Virus record (IMG/VR): IMGVR_UViG_2671180353_000009
Location: 1-18,167 of that record
DNA from: a virus
Lineage: Duplodnaviria > Heunggongvirae > Uroviricota > Caudoviricetes
Strand: one strand, 5' to 3'
Length of the DNA stretch: 18,167 bases
A program made the position numbers and the translations under genes. The notes beneath the pieces were generated by a model. That model was not told the origin of the DNA. It did no database searches and saw nothing but the letters and a program-made list of their open reading frames with translations. Shown one piece after another: positions 7,352-18,167 of the stretch (its first letter is position 1; every line of letters starts with the position of its first letter).

Positions 7352-10300
7352 ATGGCAGTACGGATTTCAGGTGTACTGAAAGATGGCGCAGGTAAGCCGA
7401 TACAAAACTGCACCATTCAGCTAAAGGCCAGGCGCAACAGCACCACGGTGGTGGTGAACACAGTGGCCTCAGAAAACCCGGATGAAGCCGGGCGTTACAC
7501 AATGGACGTCGAGTATGGTCAGTACAGCGTCAGTCTGTTGGTGGAGGGATTCCCGCCGTCACACGCCGGGATTATCACCGTATATGAGGACTCAAAGCCG
7601 GGCACACTGAATGATTTCCTCGGTGCAATGACGGAGGATGATGCCCGTCCGGAGGCACTGCGCCGTTTTGAGCTGATGGTGGAAGAGGTGGCGCGTAACG
7701 CGTCCGTGGTGGCACAGAACACGGCAGCCGCGAAGAAGTCAGCCAGTGATGCCAGCACATCAGCCCGTGAGGCGGCAACCCATGCGACTGATGCTGCAGG
7801 CTCAGCACGCGCAGCCAGCACATCAGCCGGGCAGGCCGCGACGTCGGCTCAGTCAGCGTCTTCCAGCGCAGGAACGGCATCAACAAAGGCCACTGAAGCA
7901 TCAAAAAGTGCTGCCGCTGCAGAGTCCTCAAAGAGCGCGGCAGCTACCAGTGCCGGTGCGGCGAAAAAGTCAGAAACGAATGCGGCAGCGTCACAACAAT
8001 CAGCAGCCACTTCTGCATCCACCGCGACCACGAAAGCGTCAGAAGCTGCCACCTCAGCCCGGGATGCGGCGGCCTCAAAAGAGGCAGCGAAATCATCAGA
8101 AACGAACGCATCATCAAGCGCCAGTAGTGCCGCTTCCTCGGCAACGGCGGCAGGAAATTCCGCGAAGGCGGCAAAAACGTCCGAGACGAACGCCAGGTCT
8201 TCTGAGACGGCAGCGGGACAGAGCGCCTCAGCTGCGGCAGGCTCAAAAACAGCGGCTGCGTCGTCTGCCAGTGCCGCGTCAACAAGTGCCGGGCAGGCCT
8301 CAGCCAGTGCTAGCGCCGCCGTAAAATCGGCAGAAAGCGCTGCATTGTCCGCTTCAACAGCCACAACGAAGGCTGGCGAAGCCGCTGAACAGGCCAGCGC
8401 AGCAGCGAGGTCTGCATCCGCAGCGAAGACATCCGAAACGAACGCGAAAGCCTCGGAAACCAGTGCAGAATCCTCAAAAATGGCAGCTGCATCGTCCGCC
8501 AGTTCGGCGGCGTCATCGGCATCATCTGCGTCTGCTTCAAAAGATGAGGCGAGCAGACAGGCATCAGCAGCGAAAGGCAGCGCCACGACAGCATCCACGA
8601 AGGCGACAGAGGCAGCTGGAAGTGCGACGGCGGCAGCACAGAGCAAAAGTACGGCGGAATCCGCGGCAACGCGCGCCGAGACAGCAGCAAAACGGGCAGA
8701 GGATATTGCATCCGCCGTGGCGCTGGAGGATGCGAGCACGACGAAAAAGGGGATAGTACAGCTCAGCAGTGCAACAAACAGCACCAGTGAAAAGCTGGCG
8801 GCAACGCCAAAGGCAGTTAAAACTGTTAAAGATAGTTCAGTTCAAAAAACTGGCGACACAATGGGAGGGCAGTTAAAAATCAGCACGATAAATGCTCTTC
8901 GAATATTCAACCAAGCCTTTGGCCTTATTTTTAGGCGTTCCGAAGATCATCTTCATCTTATTCCGACTAATGAAGGGGAGGGGGAAAATGGAGACATCGG
9001 TTCATTAAGACCATTCTCTATAAACTTAAGATCAGGGTTGGTGTCCATCGGTAATGGACTAAAAGTTGGTGGTAGTGTTACTGGTAATTTGACCGGAAAC
9101 GCAGATACTGCGACCAAGATCAAGACAGCACGTAAGATTGGGGGCGTGGCATTTGATGGATCGGCAGATATCAACTTGCCTGGAGTCAACGCTACCGGTA
9201 ATCAAAACACTACAGGTAATGCTGCGACCGCCACGAAACTTCAGGCAGCCAGAACGATTAACGGTGTGTCATTTGATGGTAGTGCAAATATCACATTGAC
9301 CCCTTCAAATATTGGGGCATTGGCATTAACTGGAGGGACTCTTTCAGGTGGTTTAACTGCTGCTGGTGAGGTTATTTCAAGGTCAGCAAATGGTCTGCGT
9401 ATTGCCTATGGCAACTATGGATTCTTTATCCGAAATGATGGATCAAACACATATTTTATGTTGACAGATTCGGGTAACAGTCTTGGTACGTACAATAGCT
9501 TAAGGCCGTTTATAATTAGTAACCATACTGGCAATGTTACAATTGCAACTAAATTAAACGCGAGTGGTGGTATCACTGGATCTTTATCGGGTAATGCAAG
9601 CACAGCAACCAAATTGCAAACTGCAAGGACAATTAACGGCGTAAAATTTGACGGCTCGGCAAATATTGAAGCGTTTCCGCCAGGTGTTCCGCTGCCGTGG
9701 CCATCAGATACACCACCTGCAGGTTATGCAATCATGCAGGGGCAGACGTTTGATAAGGCAGCATATCCGAAACTGGCTATTGCCTATCCTTCAGGTGTTA
9801 TTCCAGATATGCGCGGCTGGACAATCAAGGGCAAACCCGCCAGTGGCCGGGCCGTATTGTCTCAGGAACAGGACGGCATTAAATCGCACACCCACAGCGC
9901 CAGCGCATCCAGTACGGATTTAGGGACGAAAACCACATCGTCGTTTGATTACGGCACTAAATCCACGAATAACACCGGGGCGCATACGCACAGTCTGAGT
10001 GGCTCTACGGGGTCTGCCGGTGTTCATACTCATGGTAATGGTATTCGTTGGCCAGGAGGCGGCGGTTCTGCGTTAGCATTTTATGATGGCGGTGGGTTCA
10101 CTTATGTCCAGAATTCACAGTATCAAGTAAGCCCGGAGACTTCTTCCTATAGATCGTATTATCAACGTATTCAGACACAGTCAGCAGGTGCTCATACCCA
10201 CTCGCTGTCTGGTACTGCAGCAAGTTCTGGCGCACATGCACATACTGTAGGTATTGGTGCGCATACGCACTCCGTTGCGATTGGTTCACATGGACACACC

Positions 10301-10378
10301 ATCACCGTTAACGCTGCGGGTAACGCGGAAAACACCGTCAAAAACATCGCATTTAACTATATTGTGAGGCTTGCATAA
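7352..10378 (+). CDS. stf: Side tail fiber protein Stf (mosaic)
   Basis: Lambda Stf-like N-terminus [38 protein letters not shown]..., Ala/Ser/Thr-rich shaft, central module of three ~40-aa GNAxTATKLQxARTINGVxFDGSANI repeats, and lambda Stf-like C-terminus with H-x-H motifs ending [14 protein letters not shown]. The track ORF begins at 7208 because of an in-frame upstream Met; I prefer 7352. Confidence 0.9.
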
Positions 10379-10962
10379 TGGCATTCAGAATGAGTGAACA
10401 AGCACGGACCATAAAAATTTATAATCTGCTGGCCGGAACTAATGAATTTATTGGTGAAGGTGACGCATATATTCCGCCTCATACAGGTCTGCCAGCAAAC
10501 AGTACCGATATTGCACCACCAGATATTCCTGCTGGCTTTGTGGCTGTTTTCAACAGTGATGAGGCATCGTGGCATCTCGTTGAAGACCATCGGGGTAAAA
10601 CGGTTTATGACGTAGCGTCAGGGGACGAGTTATTTATTTCTGAACTCGGTCCGTTACCGGAAAATGTTACCTGGTTATCGCCGGAAGGGGAGTTTCAGAA
10701 GTGGAACGGCACAGCCTGGGTGAAGGATACGGAAGCAGAAAAACTGTTCCGGATCCGGGAGGCGGAAGAAACAAAAAACAACCTGATGCAGGTAGCCAGT
10801 GAGCATATTGCGCCGCTTCAGGATGCTGCAGATCTGGAAATTGCAACGGAGGAAGAAACCTCATTGCTGGAAGCCTGGAAAAAGTATCGGGTGTTGCTGA
10901 ACCGTGTTGATACATCAACTGCACCGGATATTGAGTGGCCTGCTGTCCCTGTTATGGAGTAA
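10378..10962 (+). CDS. tfa: Tail fiber assembly protein Tfa
   Basis: 194 aa, [54 protein letters not shown]... near-identical to lambda Tfa as recalled; start overlaps the stf stop (TAATG). Confidence 0.92.
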
Positions 10963-11499
10963 TCGTTTTGTGATATGCCGCAGACACGTCGTATGCAGAA
11001 ACGTGCTGCGGCTGGCTGGTGAACTTTCAATAGTGCGAGTATTGAATGATTTCCAGCTGTTATCGATTTTATGTGTTTTTTGCATGAGGGGATTTCCAAC
11101 ACCTCCCACCGACCATCTAAGATTTTATGCCACTGTCCCTAGGACTGCTATGTACTAGGAGCGGATGTTAAACTCAGACTCGTTTCAGCTATATTGCGTT
11201 TTGAATAATATTCCATCATAATAACTCTTTGAAAAATGTGATCTTTTCATTTATAACACTGATGACTTGCTTATCTCATTGGGATATCGGAGGAGAATAC
11301 TTAACTATGACAAGCCCGATTATTATGACACTGGCTATATTATATAGATTGATATTAAAATGTAGGGTTAGGTTCTTGCCAAGGTGTCAAGATTTACAGA
11401 TAGGTTTAAAACCATATAAATATGTTTTACGGTGAGATACAATACATATTGTAAGGCATAAACGCTTGGTAAAATTTTAATTATTGGAAGAAGCTAATC

Positions 11500-14400
11500 A
11501 TGGAACCCATATCAATTACAGTGGCAACTTATGTAGCAACTAAACTTATTGATCAATTCATCTCTCAAGAAGGATATGGTTGTATTAAGAAAGCATTATT
11601 CCCCCAAAAAAGATATGTGGATAGATTATATCAACTAATTGAAGAGACGGCAATTGAGTTTGAAGAAACATATCCAGTAGAAAGTGGAGCAATACCATTT
11701 TATCATTCCGAACCATTGTTTGAGATGTTGAATGAGCACATCTTTTTTAAAGAGTTCCCTGACAAAGAGATATTATTAGACAAGTTCAAAGAATATCCAA
11801 GTATCACTCCCCCAACTCAACAACAACTCAGCCTTTTTTATGAGATGTTATCATTAAAAATCAATAATTGTTCGAAGTTAAAAAAGCTACATATCGAAGA
11901 AACGTATAAAGAAAAAATATTCGATATTAATGAAGAGCTCATTCAAGTCAAACTTATTTTACGGTCTATAGATGAGAAACTAACTTTTCACTTAAGTGAT
12001 GATTGGTTAAATGAAAAAAATAGTCAAGCAATAGCTGACTTGGGAGGTCGATACACACCCGAACTCAACGTAAAGCTAGAAATAGCAGAGATATTTGATG
12101 GCCTCGGTAGAACTAATGATTTTTCTAAAATATTTTATTCGCATATAGATAGTTTTCTGGTCGCTGGAAAGAAATTACATAGTTGCGATGTAATTTCCTC
12201 AGAATTATTTGAAATAAACCAGTCCTTAAAAGAAATTTCTGATATATATCAGGAGATTAATTTTTCTAAATTAGATGAAATCCCTATAAATAAATTTAAT
12301 AACTATGTTTCTAGCTGCCAGACAGCTATTGGCGGAGCGGTATCAATATTGTGGGAACTCCGAGAAAAGTCAGAGCAAGTAGGTGAAACCAAGCATTACA
12401 GTGATAAGTATTCATCTACTCTGCGAATGCTTCGGGAATTTGACTATGCGTGCAATGAATTACGTATATTCATTAATTCAACAACAGTGAAGTTGGCTAA
12501 CAACCCATTCTTACTTCTCGAAGGAAAAGCAGGAATTGGTAAGTCTCATTTACTGGCTGATGTGATTAAAAATCGAATTACTTCTGGGTATCCTTCACTA
12601 CTCATACTAGGGCAACAACTTACTTCAGATGAATCTCCATGGTCACAAATCTTCAAGAGATTACAGCTTAAAATCACTTCTCGTGAATTCCTAGAAAAAC
12701 TGAATTTATATGGCAAAAAAACAGGAAAAAGAGTCTTAGTTTTTATTGATGCTATTAATGAAGGTAATGGAAATAAATTCTGGAATGACAATATTAACAG
12801 TTTTGTCGATGAAATCAGATGCTTTGAATGGCTTGGTCTGATAATGTCAGTCAGAACAACATATAGAAATGTAACAATTTCACATGAGAATGTTGTGCGA
12901 AATAATTTTGAAATTCATGAACATATTGGATTCCAGAACGTTGAGTTGGATGCGGTTAGTCTATTTTATGATTATTACAATATTGAGAGGCCTTCATCTC
13001 CTAACCTTAATCCAGAGTTTAAAAATCCTCTATTTCTTAAGTTATTGTGTGAAGGCATTAAGAAAAATGGTTTAACCAAAGTGCCTGTTGGATTTAATGG
13101 GATTTCAAATATTTTTAACTTTTTAGTGGAAGGGGTAAATAAATCATTAGCATCGCCAAAAAAATATGCATTCGATCCCAGTTTTCCTCTTGTTAAAGAT
13201 GCTCTCAATGAAATCATAAAATTCAAATTAGAGATTGGTCGTAATAGTATTTCACTTAAAGATGCTCACTCAGTGGTTCAATCTGTAGTTAATGATTATG
13301 TTGCTGATAAAACCTTCCTCAGCGCCTTGATTGACGAAGGATTATTGACTAAAGGCATAGTGAGAAATGATGATAATTCTACTGAGGAAGTAGTTTATGT
13401 GGCTTTTGAAAGGTTTGATGATCATTTAACTGTTAATTTTTTATTAAATGATGTTGAAAATATCGAAAGTGAATTTAAGCCTGATGGTCGTCTGAAAAAA
13501 TATTTTCATGATGAATGTGATTTTTATATAAAATCGGGAATAGTAGAGGCTTTGTCTATTCAATTGCCAGAAAGGTATGAAAAAGAGCTTTATGAATTTC
13601 TGCCGGAGTTCAGCAATAATCTTAAATTACTAGAAGCCTTTATTGATAGCTTGATATGGCGAGATATTAAGGCTATTGATTTCGAAAAAATTAGACCTTT
13701 CATCAATGAACATGTTTTTAAATTTAAAGATAGTTTTGATCATTTCCTCGAGGCAGTGATCTCTATTTCAGGTTTAGTTGGCCATCCCTTTAATGCTAAT
13801 TTCTTGCATGATTGGCTAAAAGATTATTCTTTGGCAAATCGAGATTCGTTTTGGACTACAGAACTTAAATATAAATATAGTGAAGACTCAGCATTTAGGC
13901 ATCTAATCGATTGGGCATGGGCCAGAACAGATAAAAGCTTTGTTTCGGATGAGTCAATCGAGCTAGTTGCAACTAGTTTATGCTGGTTTTTAACTTCTAG
14001 TAACCGAGAACTTCGAGATTGCTCAACTAAGGCTTTAGTGAGTTTACTCGAGCCAAGAATTCCTGTATTGAGAAAAATAATTGATAAGTTTTATGGTGTA
14101 AATGATCCTTACGTTTGGGAAAGAATATTTGCAGTTGCATTAGGCTGTACATTGCGAACTGATAATATTAAAGAACTAAAATATTTAGCCGAAACTGTTT
14201 ACCAAAAGGTATTTTGTTCTAAGTATGTGTATCCAAATATATTACTTAGAGATTATGCTAGAGAGATTATTGAATTTGCTAATCATCTTGGATTGGAACT
14301 TGAAAGCATTGAATTATCCAAGACTAGACCACCCTACAACAGCATTTGGCCTGACAAGATTCCTTCAAAAGAGGAACTAGAGTCCCTTTATGATAAAGAA

Positions 14401-15954
14401 CCTTATCGGGAACTCTGGAGCTCTATTATGGAAGATGGTGACTTTTCACGATATACTATTGGAACAAATTATAATCATTCTGATTGGTCTGGTTGCAAGT
14501 TTAATGAAACCCCTGTTGACCGTAAGCAAGTTTTTAAAACTTTCAAATGTAAACTAACTGATCAACAAAAAGACTTGTATGATGCCACAGATCCTTTCAT
14601 TTATGATGATAAATGCGAAGGAATTAAATTTGGTCGTGTGGTCGGTAGAAAAGCACAGGAAGAAATAAAGGCGAGCAAGAAATTATTTAAGAATTCATTG
14701 TCATACGATCTGTTAAGTGAGTTTGAAAATGAAATAGAGCCATACCTGGATCATAATAATAATCTGCTGGAAACTGATAAACACTTTGATCTTCGACTAG
14801 CTCAACAATTTATATTCAATCGTGTTATAGAGCTTGGTTGGGATCCGGAGAAGCATGGTAATTTTGACCAACAAATAGGAACTGGACGTGGACGTAGAGA
14901 GGCATTCCAAGAACGGATTGGTAAAAAATACCAATGGATTGCTTATTATGAATACATGGCAAGGCTAGCCGATAATTTTACTCGTTTTGAAGGTTATGGT
15001 GACGAACGAAAGGAAAATCCATACCAAGGGCCATGGGAGCCTTACGTAAGAGATATAGATCCCACTATCTTACTTAAAGAAACTGGAACGAAAAAAATAA
15101 GCAATAAAGAAATGTGGTGGCTTAATGATGAAGTGTTTGATTGGACTTGCTCTAATGAAGACTGGGTTAAAAGTTCTACTACTATAACTAATTCATATGC
15201 TTTTATTGAAGTTAAAGATGATAATGGTGATGAATGGATAGTATTAGAAAGTTATCCATCATGGAAAGAACCAAAAATTATTGGAAACGATGATTGGGGG
15301 CACCCACGAAAAGAGGTTTGGTATCAGATCAGAAGTTATATCGTTAAAGTTGAAGAATTTGAAAATTTTAGATGTTGGGCAATAGCTCAAGACTTTATGG
15401 GCAGGTGGATGCCGGAATGTACTGATAGATACCAATTATTTAATAGGGAGTACTATTGGTCCGAAGCATTTAAGTCTTTTAAATCAGATTATTATAGTGG
15501 ATCTGACTGGACTTCGGTAACAGACCGGGAGTCTGGAGCTAAGATAGCTGATGTTAGTGTCACTTCGATTAATTATTTGTGGGAAGAGGAGTTCGACAAA
15601 TCAAAAATAGAAACTTTGAATTTTTTGAAGCCTAGTAACTTAATCTTTGAAAAGATGGGATTAAAAAGTGGGGAAGTAGAGGGTAGCTTCAATGATGAAA
15701 ATGGAACTATGGTTTGCTTTGCAGCTGAAGCTGTATATGCTTCAAAGCCGCATCTACTTGTTAAAAAAGAACCATTTTTAACAATGTTAAGGGACAATGG
15801 TTTTGAAATCGTTTGGACATTATTAGGTGAAAAGGGCGTTATAGGGGGCTCACTCATATCAAGTCATCATTATGGTCGACAGGAGTTTAGTGGAGCATTT
15901 TATTATGAAGACAGTCAGCTAACAGGAAGTCATAAAACTAGCTTTACGAGATAA
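11500..15954 (+). CDS. Large (1484-aa) P-loop NTPase of unknown function; STAND/NACHT-like Walker A and B motifs flanked by uncharacterised N-terminal (~340 aa) and C-terminal (~1000 aa) regions; candidate single-gene defense protein or phage moron
   Basis: Uninterrupted 4455-nt ORF with GGAAGAAG RBS-like sequence ~6 nt upstream. Walker A EGKAGIGKSHLL near residue ~345 and Walker B-like hhhhD VLVFIDAINEG about 70 residues later. Strongly AT-rich, Lys/Asn/Ile/Phe/Glu-rich composition unlike the flanking phage genes. Confidence 0.8.
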   Translation: MEPISITVATYVATKLIDQFISQEGYGCIKKALFPQKRYVDRLYQLIEETAIEFEETYPVESGAIPFYHSEPLFEMLNEHIFFKEFPDKEILLDKFKEYPSITPPTQQQLSLFYEMLSLKINNCSKLKKLHIEETYKEKIFDINEELIQVKLILRSIDEKLTFHLSDDWLNEKNSQAIADLGGRYTPELNVKLEIAEIFDGLGRTNDFSKIFYSHIDSFLVAGKKLHSCDVISSELFEINQSLKEISDIYQEINFSKLDEIPINKFNNYVSSCQTAIGGAVSILWELREKSEQVGETKHYSDKYSSTLRMLREFDYACNELRIFINSTTVKLANNPFLLLEGKAGIGKSHLLADVIKNRITSGYPSLLILGQQLTSDESPWSQIFKRLQLKITSREFLEKLNLYGKKTGKRVLVFIDAINEGNGNKFWNDNINSFVDEIRCFEWLGLIMSVRTTYRNVTISHENVVRNNFEIHEHIGFQNVELDAVSLFYDYYNIERPSSPNLNPEFKNPLFLKLLCEGIKKNGLTKVPVGFNGISNIFNFLVEGVNKSLASPKKYAFDPSFPLVKDALNEIIKFKLEIGRNSISLKDAHSVVQSVVNDYVADKTFLSALIDEGLLTKGIVRNDDNSTEEVVYVAFERFDDHLTVNFLLNDVENIESEFKPDGRLKKYFHDECDFYIKSGIVEALSIQLPERYEKELYEFLPEFSNNLKLLEAFIDSLIWRDIKAIDFEKIRPFINEHVFKFKDSFDHFLEAVISISGLVGHPFNANFLHDWLKDYSLANRDSFWTTELKYKYSEDSAFRHLIDWAWARTDKSFVSDESIELVATSLCWFLTSSNRELRDCSTKALVSLLEPRIPVLRKIIDKFYGVNDPYVWERIFAVALGCTLRTDNIKELKYLAETVYQKVFCSKYVYPNILLRDYAREIIEFANHLGLELESIELSKTRPPYNSIWPDKIPSKEELESLYDKEPYRELWSSIMEDGDFSRYTIGTNYNHSDWSGCKFNETPVDRKQVFKTFKCKLTDQQKDLYDATDPFIYDDKCEGIKFGRVVGRKAQEEIKASKKLFKNSLSYDLLSEFENEIEPYLDHNNNLLETDKHFDLRLAQQFIFNRVIELGWDPEKHGNFDQQIGTGRGRREAFQERIGKKYQWIAYYEYMARLADNFTRFEGYGDERKENPYQGPWEPYVRDIDPTILLKETGTKKISNKEMWWLNDEVFDWTCSNEDWVKSSTTITNSYAFIEVKDDNGDEWIVLESYPSWKEPKIIGNDDWGHPRKEVWYQIRSYIVKVEEFENFRCWAIAQDFMGRWMPECTDRYQLFNREYYWSEAFKSFKSDYYSGSDWTSVTDRESGAKIADVSVTSINYLWEEEFDKSKIETLNFLKPSNLIFEKMGLKSGEVEGSFNDENGTMVCFAAEAVYASKPHLLVKKEPFLTMLRDNGFEIVWTLLGEKGVIGGSLISSHHYGRQEFSGAFYYEDSQLTGSHKTSFTR

Positions 15955-16062
15955 AAATGAATCTCAGAGCTGAATATATAAGTAGTATTAGAAACCGGGT
16001 TATACTTAAGAAATCAATCTTAAGTGTGGCAGTCGAATGGTAGCTAATATGCTAGCGGCGCT

Positions 16063-16092
16063 AATGCCTGTTTGTTGCTCATAACAGGCATT
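16063..16092. other. Perfect 10-bp inverted repeat (AATGCCTGTT-n10-AACAGGCATT) about 110 bp downstream of the large ORF; possible terminator-like stem-loop or protein-binding site
   Basis: Read directly; no strong T-run follows. Confidence 0.4.
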
Positions 16093-16337
16093 CACTTTAG
16101 TTATGGCAGAAAAGTATACATGCTGGGTTGGGAAAGTGTGAAAGAAAGGAAGATTGCTGCGCCGTTTGTCGTCACGTTTATCTTCATTGGCTATGCAAGT
16201 CGTAATAAAAGGTGGGACAAAACTGAGACACATAAAGCCTCGCAATGGCTTGCAAGGCTTTACATGTTTTGATGTAGTGGGACGTGTGAGCGCAGTGTTG
16301 ATGGGGTAATGCTTTGAATTAGAAGCGGATTCTTATG

Positions 16338-16383
16338 ATTCGTAATGCGAAGGTCGTAGGTTCGACTCCTATTATCGGCACCA
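16338..16383 (+). other. tRNA-Thr 3' fragment (anticodon loop through CCA); probable attR core of the prophage
   Basis: ATTCGTAATGCGAAGGTCGTAGGTTCGACTCCTATTATCGGCACCA shows a T-arm (GGTTCGACTCC), acceptor 3' strand and CCA, and matches my recollection of the 3' half of E. coli thrW (anticodon CGU). No matching 5' half lies upstream, so it is not a complete tRNA gene. Confidence 0.55.
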
Positions 16384-16988
16384 TTAAGAAAATTAATAAC
16401 TTAGCTTAACTTCTCTAAGAAATTGTATCTTCTGTTATCACTTACAAACGCCTATACGTTGTTATGGGCTTTGGTAGTGTAACACGTATGGGCGAGTAGT
16501 TCCCAGGCTCAACCTCGTAACAAGTTCCTTTGAAGCTGGAAGACGTGCCACCGTCTCTAAACCTTCTACCAAAACTCTTAGCAAGATGTTCCACACCTGG
16601 CGCGGTGTCCAATGATGCTACACGTCGTGAGACGTTGCAGAGGATAAACAGGCTAAATGATGGGAAGAGTTTTAAGTGCAATAGTGGATTAAAGCCCACC
16701 TCTTCAAAACCTAACTTGATCGGGAAAGAATCAAGCTCTAGCACGGTTTCGTCCACCGGAGTACAACGGGTGCCTGATAAGAGAAGAACTGCTAAGACTT
16801 CATAGCTTTTGTGAAAAAGCCCTTTTTAGTGGATACGCCTACGGCGCTTATTTTTTGGTATAACCATCAAAGGCGCTTTATGGCTCCTATTGTCTTGAAA
16901 ATGTATCTTTACTTGTATTGTGTTTTATGCGTAGTCTCCCTGTGTAGTATGTAACTTGTTAATTTTCATATGAATACAGAGGCACACG

Positions 16989-17147
16989 ATGAAAAACATT
17001 GCAGCAATCAAACGTAATAACCGCAAGATTCACGCTCGTAAGTTCCTGTCTACGCCAGAAGGAAAAGCCTGGCTAGAGCGTAAACAGAGAGAGAACGAAG
17101 AAAGAAAACTCCTTAGTGAGTTGAAATGGCTTAGAGAGGATTTCTGA
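16989..17147 (+). CDS. Small basic hypothetical protein (52 aa; MKNIAAIKRNNRKIHARKFLSTPEGKAWLERKQRENEERKLLSELKWLREDF)
   Basis: ORF below the track's length cutoff, found by reading; AGAGG-like RBS about 8 nt upstream; composition is helical and basic. No homology recognised. Confidence 0.3.
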   Translation: MKNIAAIKRNNRKIHARKFLSTPEGKAWLERKQRENEERKLLSELKWLREDF

Positions 17148-17434
17148 AAATCTCCAGAACGCAACAGGACGCATTCTAACGCTGTTTTCATTACTCGGTA
17201 TAGGGATAGGTGATGTGTGTTTAATGCGTCTGTGCGCTTGTTTTGTGCCTTATTTTGCATTTTCATAATGCGGAAGAGAACACGGAAAACCTTAAAATTA
17301 ATTATTGGGGTATTTAAGGCTATTTTCAGGTGATTTAAGGGTATTAAACTTGATTTAATTGATTAAAATATAAACAGATAATTATGTATCTTATTGATTT
17401 ATAAGGTTGTTTTTAAGTAAAGGTAAATAAAAAA

Positions 17435-17463
17435 TAAATAGCCATAAATAGCTATAAATACAT
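17435..17463. repeat. Three tandem ~10-bp units (ATAAATAGCC / ATAAATAGCT / ATAAATACA) in an AT-rich region; iteron-like or regulator-binding repeats
   Basis: Read directly; further phased repeats (ATTTAAGG, twice, 21 bp apart) at ~17313 and ~17334. Confidence 0.4.
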
Positions 17464-17487
17464 CTTAATACCTATATCCCTTCCCTT

Positions 17488-17823
17488 ATGGCTAGATTGC
17501 GAGAGGTGCTTAACGCGATTTTCAGCGCCCCCCGATCTGGAAAATCCAGAATCCCCAAATATCAGCAAGGAATTTTCTTGCGTAATCAACATCGTTTTTA
17601 CCTATTAAATCATTACACAGAAAGCCTTTCTGTAATGTCTCTCACTAAACTTTCACTAAACACGAGAATGATCGGTTTTATGTCGGATCAGATGCTAGAA
17701 ACAGCACCACGTCTCACAAGGGCTGTAAGCGATGAAACCAGTGTTTATGCGGGTGCAGGTCAAAATATAGGCCAAAATCCATTTAACATAATAAATGTTA
17801 TATGTGCTAAGGAACACATATAA
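17488..17823 (+). CDS. Hypothetical protein (111 aa), weak coding evidence
   Basis: Track ORF downstream of the AT-rich repeat region; no recognisable motifs. Confidence 0.25.
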   Translation: MARLREVLNAIFSAPRSGKSRIPKYQQGIFLRNQHRFYLLNHYTESLSVMSLTKLSLNTRMIGFMSDQMLETAPRLTRAVSDETSVYAGAGQNIGQNPFNIINVICAKEHI

Positions 17824-18095
17824 CGCCTTGAATTGATGTATCAGTGGAAAAGTGATGGATTTTTTACGTAGGAGCACGAAAGGGCTTCTATTGACTTTTG
17901 TGTGCTATGAAATATAATTAAAGTTTTTTGTTTTTATTGTGTGATGTGGTGGGTTACACAGGGGAATAGATTAAATGGTGTTCTGTTTATACAGGTTTAT
18001 TTGTTAGATCAACAATTTGGCATTTCTAAACAGATGTTTGAACGTTGCCAAATGTCTTGACAACACAAGAAAAGGGCTTGCTATGCCAGGCATTA

Positions 18096-18138
18096 TGAGG
18101 TGTACTGGCAATAGCGGACACTACCATTTGTTCTTTTT
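18096..18138. repeat. 43-bp direct repeat, copy 2
   Basis: Matches 7209..7251; the flanks differ (TTAAGCAGCC follows here, GACGGACGC follows copy 1). Confidence 0.7.
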
Positions 18139-18167
18139 TTAAGCAGCCATCTGATGATATTTTTCCC

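Follow-up and report, generated by a model that had tools for sequence, protein, structure and literature searches.

A Low-GC Cassette, Very Probably an Exchangeable Shaft Module, in the Lambda-Type Side Tail Fiber Gene of an Escherichia coli Prophage

Introduction

Why does a side tail fiber gene of otherwise lambda-like layout contain about 850 bp of AT-rich DNA in its center, and what might this segment contribute to the fiber? The gene in question, stf, lies on a stretch of 18,167 nt (positions 1 to 18,167 of the IMG/VR virus record IMGVR_UViG_2671180353_000009, Caudoviricetes), which we call the window and which is the tail end of a lambdoid Escherichia coli prophage. An earlier sequence-only reading had placed the AT-rich segment at 8800-9660, described it as three repeats of about 40 aa within a lambda-like Stf, and interpreted it as a module acquired from a phage of lower GC content. 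The drop was confirmed, with a GC of 0.426 and a GC at third codon positions (GC3) of 0.336 in 8822-9670, and the coordinates proved accurate within about 20 nt, as homology to lambda is lost at 8820 and regained at 9671. The repeats require a different description and the interpretation is partly supported. We conclude that 8821-9670 is very probably an exchangeable trimeric shaft or spacer cassette in a lambda-type stf, swapped at conserved junction motifs.

The stf Gene and Its Lambda Counterpart

The gene stf (7352..10378, + strand) is intact: a single open reading frame (ORF) of 1008 aa runs without frameshift from an ATG at 7352 to a stop at 10378, and the central region lies within it. 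A 1056 aa ORF from a TTG at 7208 was rejected as upstream read-through. The product matches phrog_295 tail fiber (E 4e-186) and is 100% identical to WP_052978474.1, a 'phage tail protein' of E. coli F5505-C1. A domain search found PF08400, PF21446, PF07484, and PF03335 on Stf, while no NCBIfam model matched Stf or Tfa. Judged by its PF08400 N-terminal domain, its gp37-like C-terminus with HxH repeats and the downstream tfa, the gene is a lambda-type stf; the formation of functional side fibers that speed adsorption is a putative role of its product.

As reference we used the 774 aa Ur-lambda Stf, rebuilt from orf-401 and orf-314 of NC_001416. Comparison of the window with lambda by blastn gave 85.7% identity over 7328-8260, followed by extra sequence at 8261-8564 that is absent from lambda, and 78.9% identity over 8565-8820. 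No homology was found over 8821-9670. Identity resumes with 76% over 9671-10027, is interrupted at ~10028-10198, where no match was obtained, and amounts to 94.2% over 10241-11011. The earlier claim that the flanks match lambda Stf therefore holds as far as homology on both sides is concerned, but the match is uneven (76–94% at the nucleotide level), with the gap at ~10028-10198 and 105 extra residues in the rod. Between the flanks, 850 bp stand in place of an unrelated 429 bp segment of lambda, that is, 283 aa replace 143 aa. The sequence-only reading had proposed this alignment as a check, in which a central segment of similar composition in canonical lambda Stf would speak against an exchange. 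The segment turned out to be absent from lambda, and the lambda counterpart has a GC of 0.524-0.527 and a GC3 of 0.49.

Both edges of the replaced segment fall close to motifs common to the two fibers, namely ATPKAVK (window aa 486-490; lambda 381-385) and AFPxGxPxPWP (window aa 774; lambda 529). The first belongs to a conserved junction motif (GIVQLSS...ATPKAVK; 8720..8820, + strand), which forms the left edge of the cassette and at the end of which lambda homology ceases. This motif is common to all lambdoid Stf proteins compared, which diverge thereafter. It appears to resemble the alpha-beta fibrous repeat with conserved S/T-P of gp34 and gp12 (PMC5537660).

Layout of the Cassette

The central low-GC cassette (8821..9670, + strand, 283 aa) has the order D1-R1-R2-D2-R3, in which D1 and D2 are globular knob domains of about 80 aa each that together make up about 60% of its length. 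The D1 knob (aa 499-581; 8846..9094) is followed by the 26 aa repeat R1 (aa 582-607; 9095..9172) and by R2 (aa 622-647; 9215..9292), the D2 knob with its flanking beta-helix (aa 659-746; 9326..9589) comes next, and R3 (aa 747-772; 9590..9667) forms the right edge, with lambda homology resuming at 9671; all of these lie on the + strand. The three repeats follow the pattern GNAxTATK...FDGSAxI (also FDGSxNI), and we refer to them as GNA repeats. All three peptides quoted in the earlier description exist exactly. However, R1 and R2 are spaced by 40 aa and R3 follows 125 aa further on, hence they do not form a tandem triplet, and the two knob domains had been missed. Within 8800-9660, RNA genes, tRNAs, promoters and terminators were searched on both strands with nothing above chance, and the antisense ORFs 8953-9189 and 9415-9612 found no support.

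The assignment of the repeats to the 'phage tail fibre repeat' family could not be upheld. Neither PF03335 nor PF03406 matched R1-R3, even at E<=10; the PF03335 match is confined to the GAHTHSLSG repeat (aa 874-887) in the distal part of the protein, and that of PF03406 (Phage_fiber_2) to the LAATPKAVK junction motif. R2 instead falls into the N-terminal part of PF21446, under profile positions ~16-56. A literature search with the repeat peptide strings returned nothing relevant. The C-terminal spike of Dec, the capsid decoration protein of phage L, has the motif NAxTAxKL...ARTI...FDGSANVT, the same as in the GNA repeats; the match is weak, the motif clear.

Homologs and Predicted Fold

The profile PF21446 (Gp34_trimer) scores 96-102 bits on R2 plus D2, compared to a gathering threshold of 27. 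D1 alone scores 15.3 bits and thus stays below this threshold; its kinship appears supported by paralogy to D2 and by homology to gp37. In a sequence search of the PDB, D2 matched residues 268-349 of Mu gpS (5yvq; E 2.6e-26) and the T4 gp34 structures 4uxe, 5nxf, 5nxh, and 9x3r (E ~1e-17). Direct BLASTP aligned D2 with T4 gp34 1014-1112 at 49% identity and D1 with T4 gp37 570-638 at 55% identity (E 1e-17). According to the crystal structure of gp34, a triple beta-helix formed by residues 1014-1047 and 1105-1128 flanks a beta-prism domain, and the gp34 shaft is described as 'punctuated' by such domains with antiparallel sheets (PMC5537660).

An AlphaFold2 (AF2) model of the cassette, computed as a monomer on 35 homologs, predicts for D1 and D2 each a four-stranded antiparallel sheet plus two strands, and for each GNA repeat a short helix followed by a beta-hairpin (pLDDT 77-89). 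When this model was searched against the PDB with Foldseek, only Mu S (5yvq; E 1.6e-5) and gp34 (E ~1e-3) rose above noise. With moderate confidence, the model may serve for secondary structure and for the resemblance to gp34 and Mu S, not for the trimer.

Distribution and Module Exchange

Of 5426 complete E. coli genomes, 700 contain a match to a 901 bp central query, and in 423 of these the match spans at least 80% of the query. At an identity of at least 99%, the cassette is present in 431 E. coli records (about 8% of the complete genomes), annotated as prophage tail fiber. The whole stf gene reaches at least 80% coverage in the same number of genomes (423), while only 43 records attain 95% identity overall, because the 5' part of the gene diverges. 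This became visible in the prophages of strains 7/2 and ML35: they are 98–100% identical to the window over ~8657-10850, a span that takes in the junction motif, the cassette, the tip and most of tfa, with one mismatch in 8785-9670, while the 5' part of stf is only 79–95% identical. By sequence, these two prophages thus have the cassette, the distal half-fiber block and the chaperone in common with the window.

Outside of lambdoid prophages, the cassette occurs in the tail fiber of an SSU5-like phage-plasmid (NZ_CP070135.1; 108 kb, rep_cluster_488), where it is 97–98% identical at the nucleotide level and sits behind an unrelated N-terminus. Module exchange between phages, which the earlier reading had put forward as established knowledge, is therefore borne out at this locus. 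The fiber of NZ_CP070135.1 comprises 1140 aa and that of NZ_CP146657.1 1254 aa. Compared to the window, these phage-plasmid fibers are 95–100% identical at 8785-9610 and 92–97% at 7960-8600, but only 60–76% at 8610-8785, and they are unrelated beyond ~9634; identity falls within R3, at ~9610-9633. The alignments thus place the cassette in at least two fiber backgrounds, with its left edge at ATPKAVK and its right edge inside or just after a GNA repeat. In a separate observation, the fiber gene of NZ_CP070135.1 (4643-8065) was found to encode seven GNA repeats and a globular domain (GRVTALT...YNNGYP...GEGEL.IGWSGTSGAHAP...RSRRDT), and the lambdoid phages PhiR26_1 and PhiR29_1 have this domain as their central cassette, which makes it a second module common to both fiber types.

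The slot between ATPKAVK and (F/Y)PxGxPIPWP is occupied by at least four unrelated cassettes, namely those of lambda, of PhiR26_1 and PhiR29_1, of PhiR34_1 and of the window. Swaps in this part of Stf are evidently tolerated, since lambda Stf chimeras engineered with fusion points at R393 and S528 retain function (PMC11338833).

Distant relatives with 44–76% aa identity were found in P7 S', P1 S, Mu S, 9g-like siphoviruses, Goslar, T-even gp34 and other lambdoid Stf proteins. In total, tblastn on phages returned 1053 records related to the module, and a protein database search 2479 proteins at E<=1e-10. None of the cultured phages in INPHARED has 80% or more of the module at the DNA level. A scan of the GTDB species representatives for a donor delivered distant relatives only, with identities of no more than 59% over D2 (Salmonella) and 40% (Kluyvera). 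In the same scan, isolated GNA repeats were seen in fiber-like genes of many bacterial phyla, including Bacteroidota, Firmicutes and CPR.

Anchor, Rod, and Tip of the Fiber

Upstream of the junction motif, Stf consists of an N-terminal tail-attachment domain and a rod. The former (aa 2-135; 7355..7756, + strand) matches PF08400 (phage_tail_N) with E 4e-71 and 238 bits compared to a cut-off of 26.6, and the N-terminus matches residues 1-94 of the 'Tail fiber protein' PDB 9e7m (E 4e-49). Over aa 1-286, Stf shares 86% identity with lambda orf-401. The Ala/Ser-rich rod (7697..8719, + strand, 341 aa) is strictly heptad-periodic, with an identity autocorrelation of 0.40-0.43 at lags 7, 14 ... 42 compared to about 0.19 otherwise, and is presumably a trimeric coiled coil. 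The lambda rod comprises 236 aa; the one described here exceeds it by exactly 105 aa, which equals 15 heptads, and DNA repeat spacings within it are mostly multiples of 21 nt. The block that is extra relative to lambda (8261-8564) is common to the SSU5-like phage-plasmid fiber at 94% nucleotide identity. If the rod is a coiled coil with 0.15 nm per residue, the 15 additional heptads would add about 15 nm.

Downstream of the cassette, the C-terminal collar-needle-head is a receptor-binding tip of gp37 type (aa 774-1008; 9671..10375, + strand). Its 235 aa match PDB 2xgf (T4 gp37 785-1026; E 1.2e-79) as well as PF07484 (Collar) and PF03335. It is 65% identical to lambda orf-314 and 11 aa shorter than the lambda tip. 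A variable stretch at ~aa 893-963 has no DNA match to lambda and diverges from both lambda and T4. Receptor specificity in this fiber family has been placed in the last ~215 aa (PMC9659904).

Function of the Cassette

Taken together, we envision a fiber in which the attachment domain would be followed by the coiled-coil rod, the junction motif, the D1-R1-R2-D2-R3 cassette and the gp37-type tip, the folding of which would be assisted by Tfa. D1 and D2 would form antiparallel beta-sheet knobs, probably of beta-prism type, as in the triple beta-helix shafts of T4 gp34, gp37 and Mu S, and the GNA repeats would be short connectors, each probably folded as a narrow beta-helical segment of the trimer. 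How long and how stiff the distal fiber is, and how its knobs are arranged, is most likely determined by the cassette; jointly with the 15 extra heptads it would lengthen and re-pattern the fiber. It probably arrived by homologous or illegitimate recombination at the junction motifs, and it circulates among lambdoid prophages and SSU5-like phage-plasmids and, more distantly, among the fibers of P1, P7, Mu and T-even phages. The choice of receptor would reside in the C-terminal head and is unlikely to be set by the cassette.

One might object that the cassette is a second region binding a receptor or a host glycan, with D1 and D2 as lateral adhesins, so that its swap would alter specificity directly. 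Fibers with two receptor-binding domains do exist, and the Ur-lambda Stf may recognize O-antigen besides OmpC (PMC11990801); moreover, lambdoid phages have a hypervariable slot flanked by the junction motifs, as would be expected under diversifying selection. However, the closest solved homologs are shaft parts, namely the proximal half-fiber protein gp34 and the portion of Mu S that precedes the binding domain. The cassette is 98–100% identical together with the tip in 7/2 and ML35 and at least 99% identical in the 431 records, thus it displays no pattern of local diversification, and the divergence from lambda and T4 is located in the tip at ~aa 893-963. As the homologs belong to shafts, the cassette hardly varies across the records that carry it and the divergent stretch lies in the tip, we regard a direct effect on specificity as unlikely. 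Of the earlier suggestion that the module changed fiber length or specificity, the part on length and architecture is consequently the better supported one.

Several points nevertheless weigh against a shaft cassette imported from a lower-GC source. First, the AF2 monomer is of modest confidence (mean pLDDT 65, pTM 0.31), and the global TM-scores of the model to gp34 and Mu S are low (~0.2). Second, the PDB sequence search with R1-R2 gave phage L Dec (6e3c_C, residues 88-133) as its sole match, and a weak one (E 0.24). Third, the tip and tfa have a lowish GC3 themselves (0.44-0.45), therefore the 'foreign' block may exceed the cassette. Fourth, that the transfer went from a lower-GC pool into stf is suggested by composition and by no other evidence. 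Finally, by analogy to T4, the D1 and D2 knobs might be docking sites that stow the side fiber on the phage's own tail, or binders of host surface glycans. The gp34 loop 1076-1087, which lies inside the region homologous to D2, shows connecting density to the tail sheath (PMC5537660). If this idea were true, a cassette swap would tune fiber deployment or add a second specificity; we consider it improbable, and favor the structural role of a shaft or spacer.

Origin of the Repeats

A recent internal duplication could, in principle, have generated the three repeats as home-grown length variation without any import. In fact, D1 plus R1 aligns with D2 plus R3 at 42% identity (E 9e-24), so these units are clearly paralogous, R2 and R3 share 23 of 26 residues, and BLASTP of R1 versus R2 gave E 6e-13. 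As proteins, R1-R3 agree at 18-23 of 26 positions, whereas their DNA is identical at no more than 51-53 of 78 positions (65–68%), and a DNA repeat search reported none in 8821-9670. R1-R3 are therefore old repeats kept at the protein level and not recent duplications. The same arrangement of all copies is found in the phage-plasmid fiber, and the closest relatives of the two knobs differ, T4 gp37 for D1 and gp34 or Mu S for D2. Given the DNA divergence, the phage-plasmid arrangement and these separate relatives, the duplication is ancient and older than the arrival of the cassette in stf. We thus hold a recent duplication to be very improbable and retain the import of a ready-formed cassette.

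Composition and Direction of Transfer

Along stf, the Ala/Ser-rich part (7703-8719) has a GC of 0.615, the segment 8822-9670 one of 0.426 and the C-terminal part one of 0.518. Because the upstream rod is 38% Ala, amino-acid and codon effects were separated by deriving expected values from the residues of the segment and the codon usage of J, the stf flanks and tfa. The difference between the observed and expected GC3, 0.336 versus 0.580 over 283 codons, corresponds by simple arithmetic to about eight binomial standard deviations, and the lowest GC3 among 283-codon windows of J, the stf flanks and tfa was 0.399. The GC drop is thus a real, codon-level signal and not an amino-acid artifact, since the GC3 lies below expectation and below every reference window. 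That an Ala-rich (GCN) rod simply gives way to a Gly/Asn/Thr-rich segment, with neither foreign origin nor exchange, is hardly credible: the rod, with 129 Ala among 337 residues and a GC of 0.615, does account for part of the visual drop, as an exceptionally GC-rich stretch ends there, but the residues of the module predict a GC of 0.529 and a GC3 of 0.580 where 0.426 and 0.336 are observed, and the segment lacks homology to lambda and is 97–98% identical to part of the phage-plasmid fiber.

Homologs of D1 and D2 have a GC3 of 0.26-0.38 in T4, CMS-2020a, P7, P1, Mu and the lambdoid PhiR34_1; the last has a low-GC3 homolog although its stf locus has a GC of 0.53. In the distal half of the phage-plasmid fiber, GC3 is 0.28-0.48. 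Since the D1/D2 homologs are of low GC3 in every coliphage background examined, the cassette bears the signature of a lower-GC fiber gene pool, and its composition fits fibers of the phage-plasmid and T-even type better than the lambdoid backbone. T4, at 47–55% aa identity, is too distant to be the donor, and the 97% identical phage-plasmid copy could be donor or recipient alike. The proposed acquisition from a lower-GC phage therefore stands as regards the foreign composition and the absence from lambda; it names no donor, and its direction derives from composition only.

Genomic Context

As in lambda, the tail operon ends with J, lom, stf and tfa in this order, with J at 763-4242 and lom at 4310-4909. 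The gene tfa (10378..10962, + strand) encodes the tail fiber assembly chaperone (phrog_105, E 1.5e-100), is 94% identical to lambda orf-194 at the nucleotide level and overlaps the end of stf by one base, as in lambda. Within its coding sequence, the Rfam family IS009 (RF02111) matches at 10721-10919 on the + strand with 225 bits compared to a gathering score of 117; this family is probably built on conserved prophage tfa sequence and indicates no independent RNA gene. No tRNA gene was found in the whole window.

Positions 1-4952 and 7320-16325 of the window are 100% identical to E. coli O25:H16 F5505-C1, where the shared genes are annotated as J, lom, 'phage tail protein', tfa and avs2. The interval 4953-7319 between lom and stf has no counterpart in that strain. 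It is an extra, partial copy of the tail end, 94% identical to the corresponding part of the intact copy, and comprises a C-terminal fragment of J (5013-5738; TipJ positions 917-1163), a second lom (5806-6405), an N-terminal fragment of stf (6427-6795) and an N-terminal fragment of an IS21-family transposase (6882-7211). At a coverage of at least 80%, this J'-lom-stf'-IS21 arrangement occurs in no complete E. coli genome of the collection. Directly 3' of tfa lies avs2 (11500-15954, + strand, 1484 aa, GC 0.34), an AVAST type 2 anti-phage gene that matches NCBIfam NF041813 with 1689 bits compared to a cut-off of 1000 and is named avs2 in F5505-C1 as well. It is a defense 'moron' that occupies the position of the lambda b region. 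In F5505-C1, the IS66-family element ISCro1 follows just after avs2; the window lacks it. The match to the F5505-C1 locus ends past 16387, and 16077-18095 is about 97% identical to 'hypothetical protein' regions of other E. coli.

Significance and Comparison With Known Systems

The cassette is an ordinary and widespread tail fiber module swap and no new kind of feature; hundreds of E. coli genomes already have this exact allele in their annotation. That lambda, P2, P1, Mu and T-even phages exchange segments of their tail fibers has counted as textbook mosaicism since the early 1990s, and Haggard-Ljungquist in 1992, Hendrix and Duda in 1992 and Sandmeier in 1994 reportedly described such modular exchange. 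The scientific weight of this further case is consequently small. What it offers are natural splice points that are evidently tolerated, located behind ATPKAVK, in or behind a GNA repeat, and ahead of the FPxGxPxPWP collar, as well as a ready-made shaft cassette present in both prophages and phage-plasmids. The splice points and the cassette could be of use in designing chimeric Stf proteins for lambda-based delivery particles, for which the fusion points are now R393 or S528 (PMC11338833).

Among known systems, Ur-lambda Stf with Tfa shares the J-lom-stf-tfa slot, the N-domain, the heptad Ala/Ser rod, the junction motif and the gp37-like C-terminus. It differs in its central 143 aa (VVMDETNRKAPLDSP...GAGENS), in place of which the window encodes the unrelated cassette, and in its length of 774 aa compared to 1008 aa, with the rod being 105 aa longer here and the tip head diverged. 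The lambdoid Stf alleles of PhiR34_1, PhiR26_1, PhiR29_1 and Rac (stfR) have the same flanks and the same cassette slot, and PhiR34_1 Stf possesses one D2-type domain and one GNA repeat; unlike the flanks, the cassettes of these other alleles are unrelated to that of the window or only 44–50% identical. The SSU5-like fiber of NZ_CP070135.1, with its relatives CMS-2020a and Cyrano, has D1-R1-R2-D2 and most of R3 as well as much of the Ala/Ser rod. However, its N-terminus is unrelated and its distal part different, with a total of seven GNA repeats, one more globular domain, another C-terminal domain and no gp37-like tip.

More remote are the T4 proteins gp34 (P4 region, 4UXE/5NXF) and gp37, which contain homologs of D2, D1 and the tip with a similarly low GC3. 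In contrast to the single Stf protein, they hold these pieces, at 47–59% aa identity, in two proteins of a four-protein fiber, and the GNAxTATK motif was not found in T4 gp34 or gp37. The invertible-segment fibers Mu S, P1 S and P7 S' (5YVQ) combine a D2-type domain of 63–75% aa identity with GNA repeats, and their DNA is 73–76% similar over 170-200 bp, whereas the order and number of units, the tips, the chaperones and the myovirus context differ. These fibers are the classical case of tail fiber mosaicism between unrelated phages.

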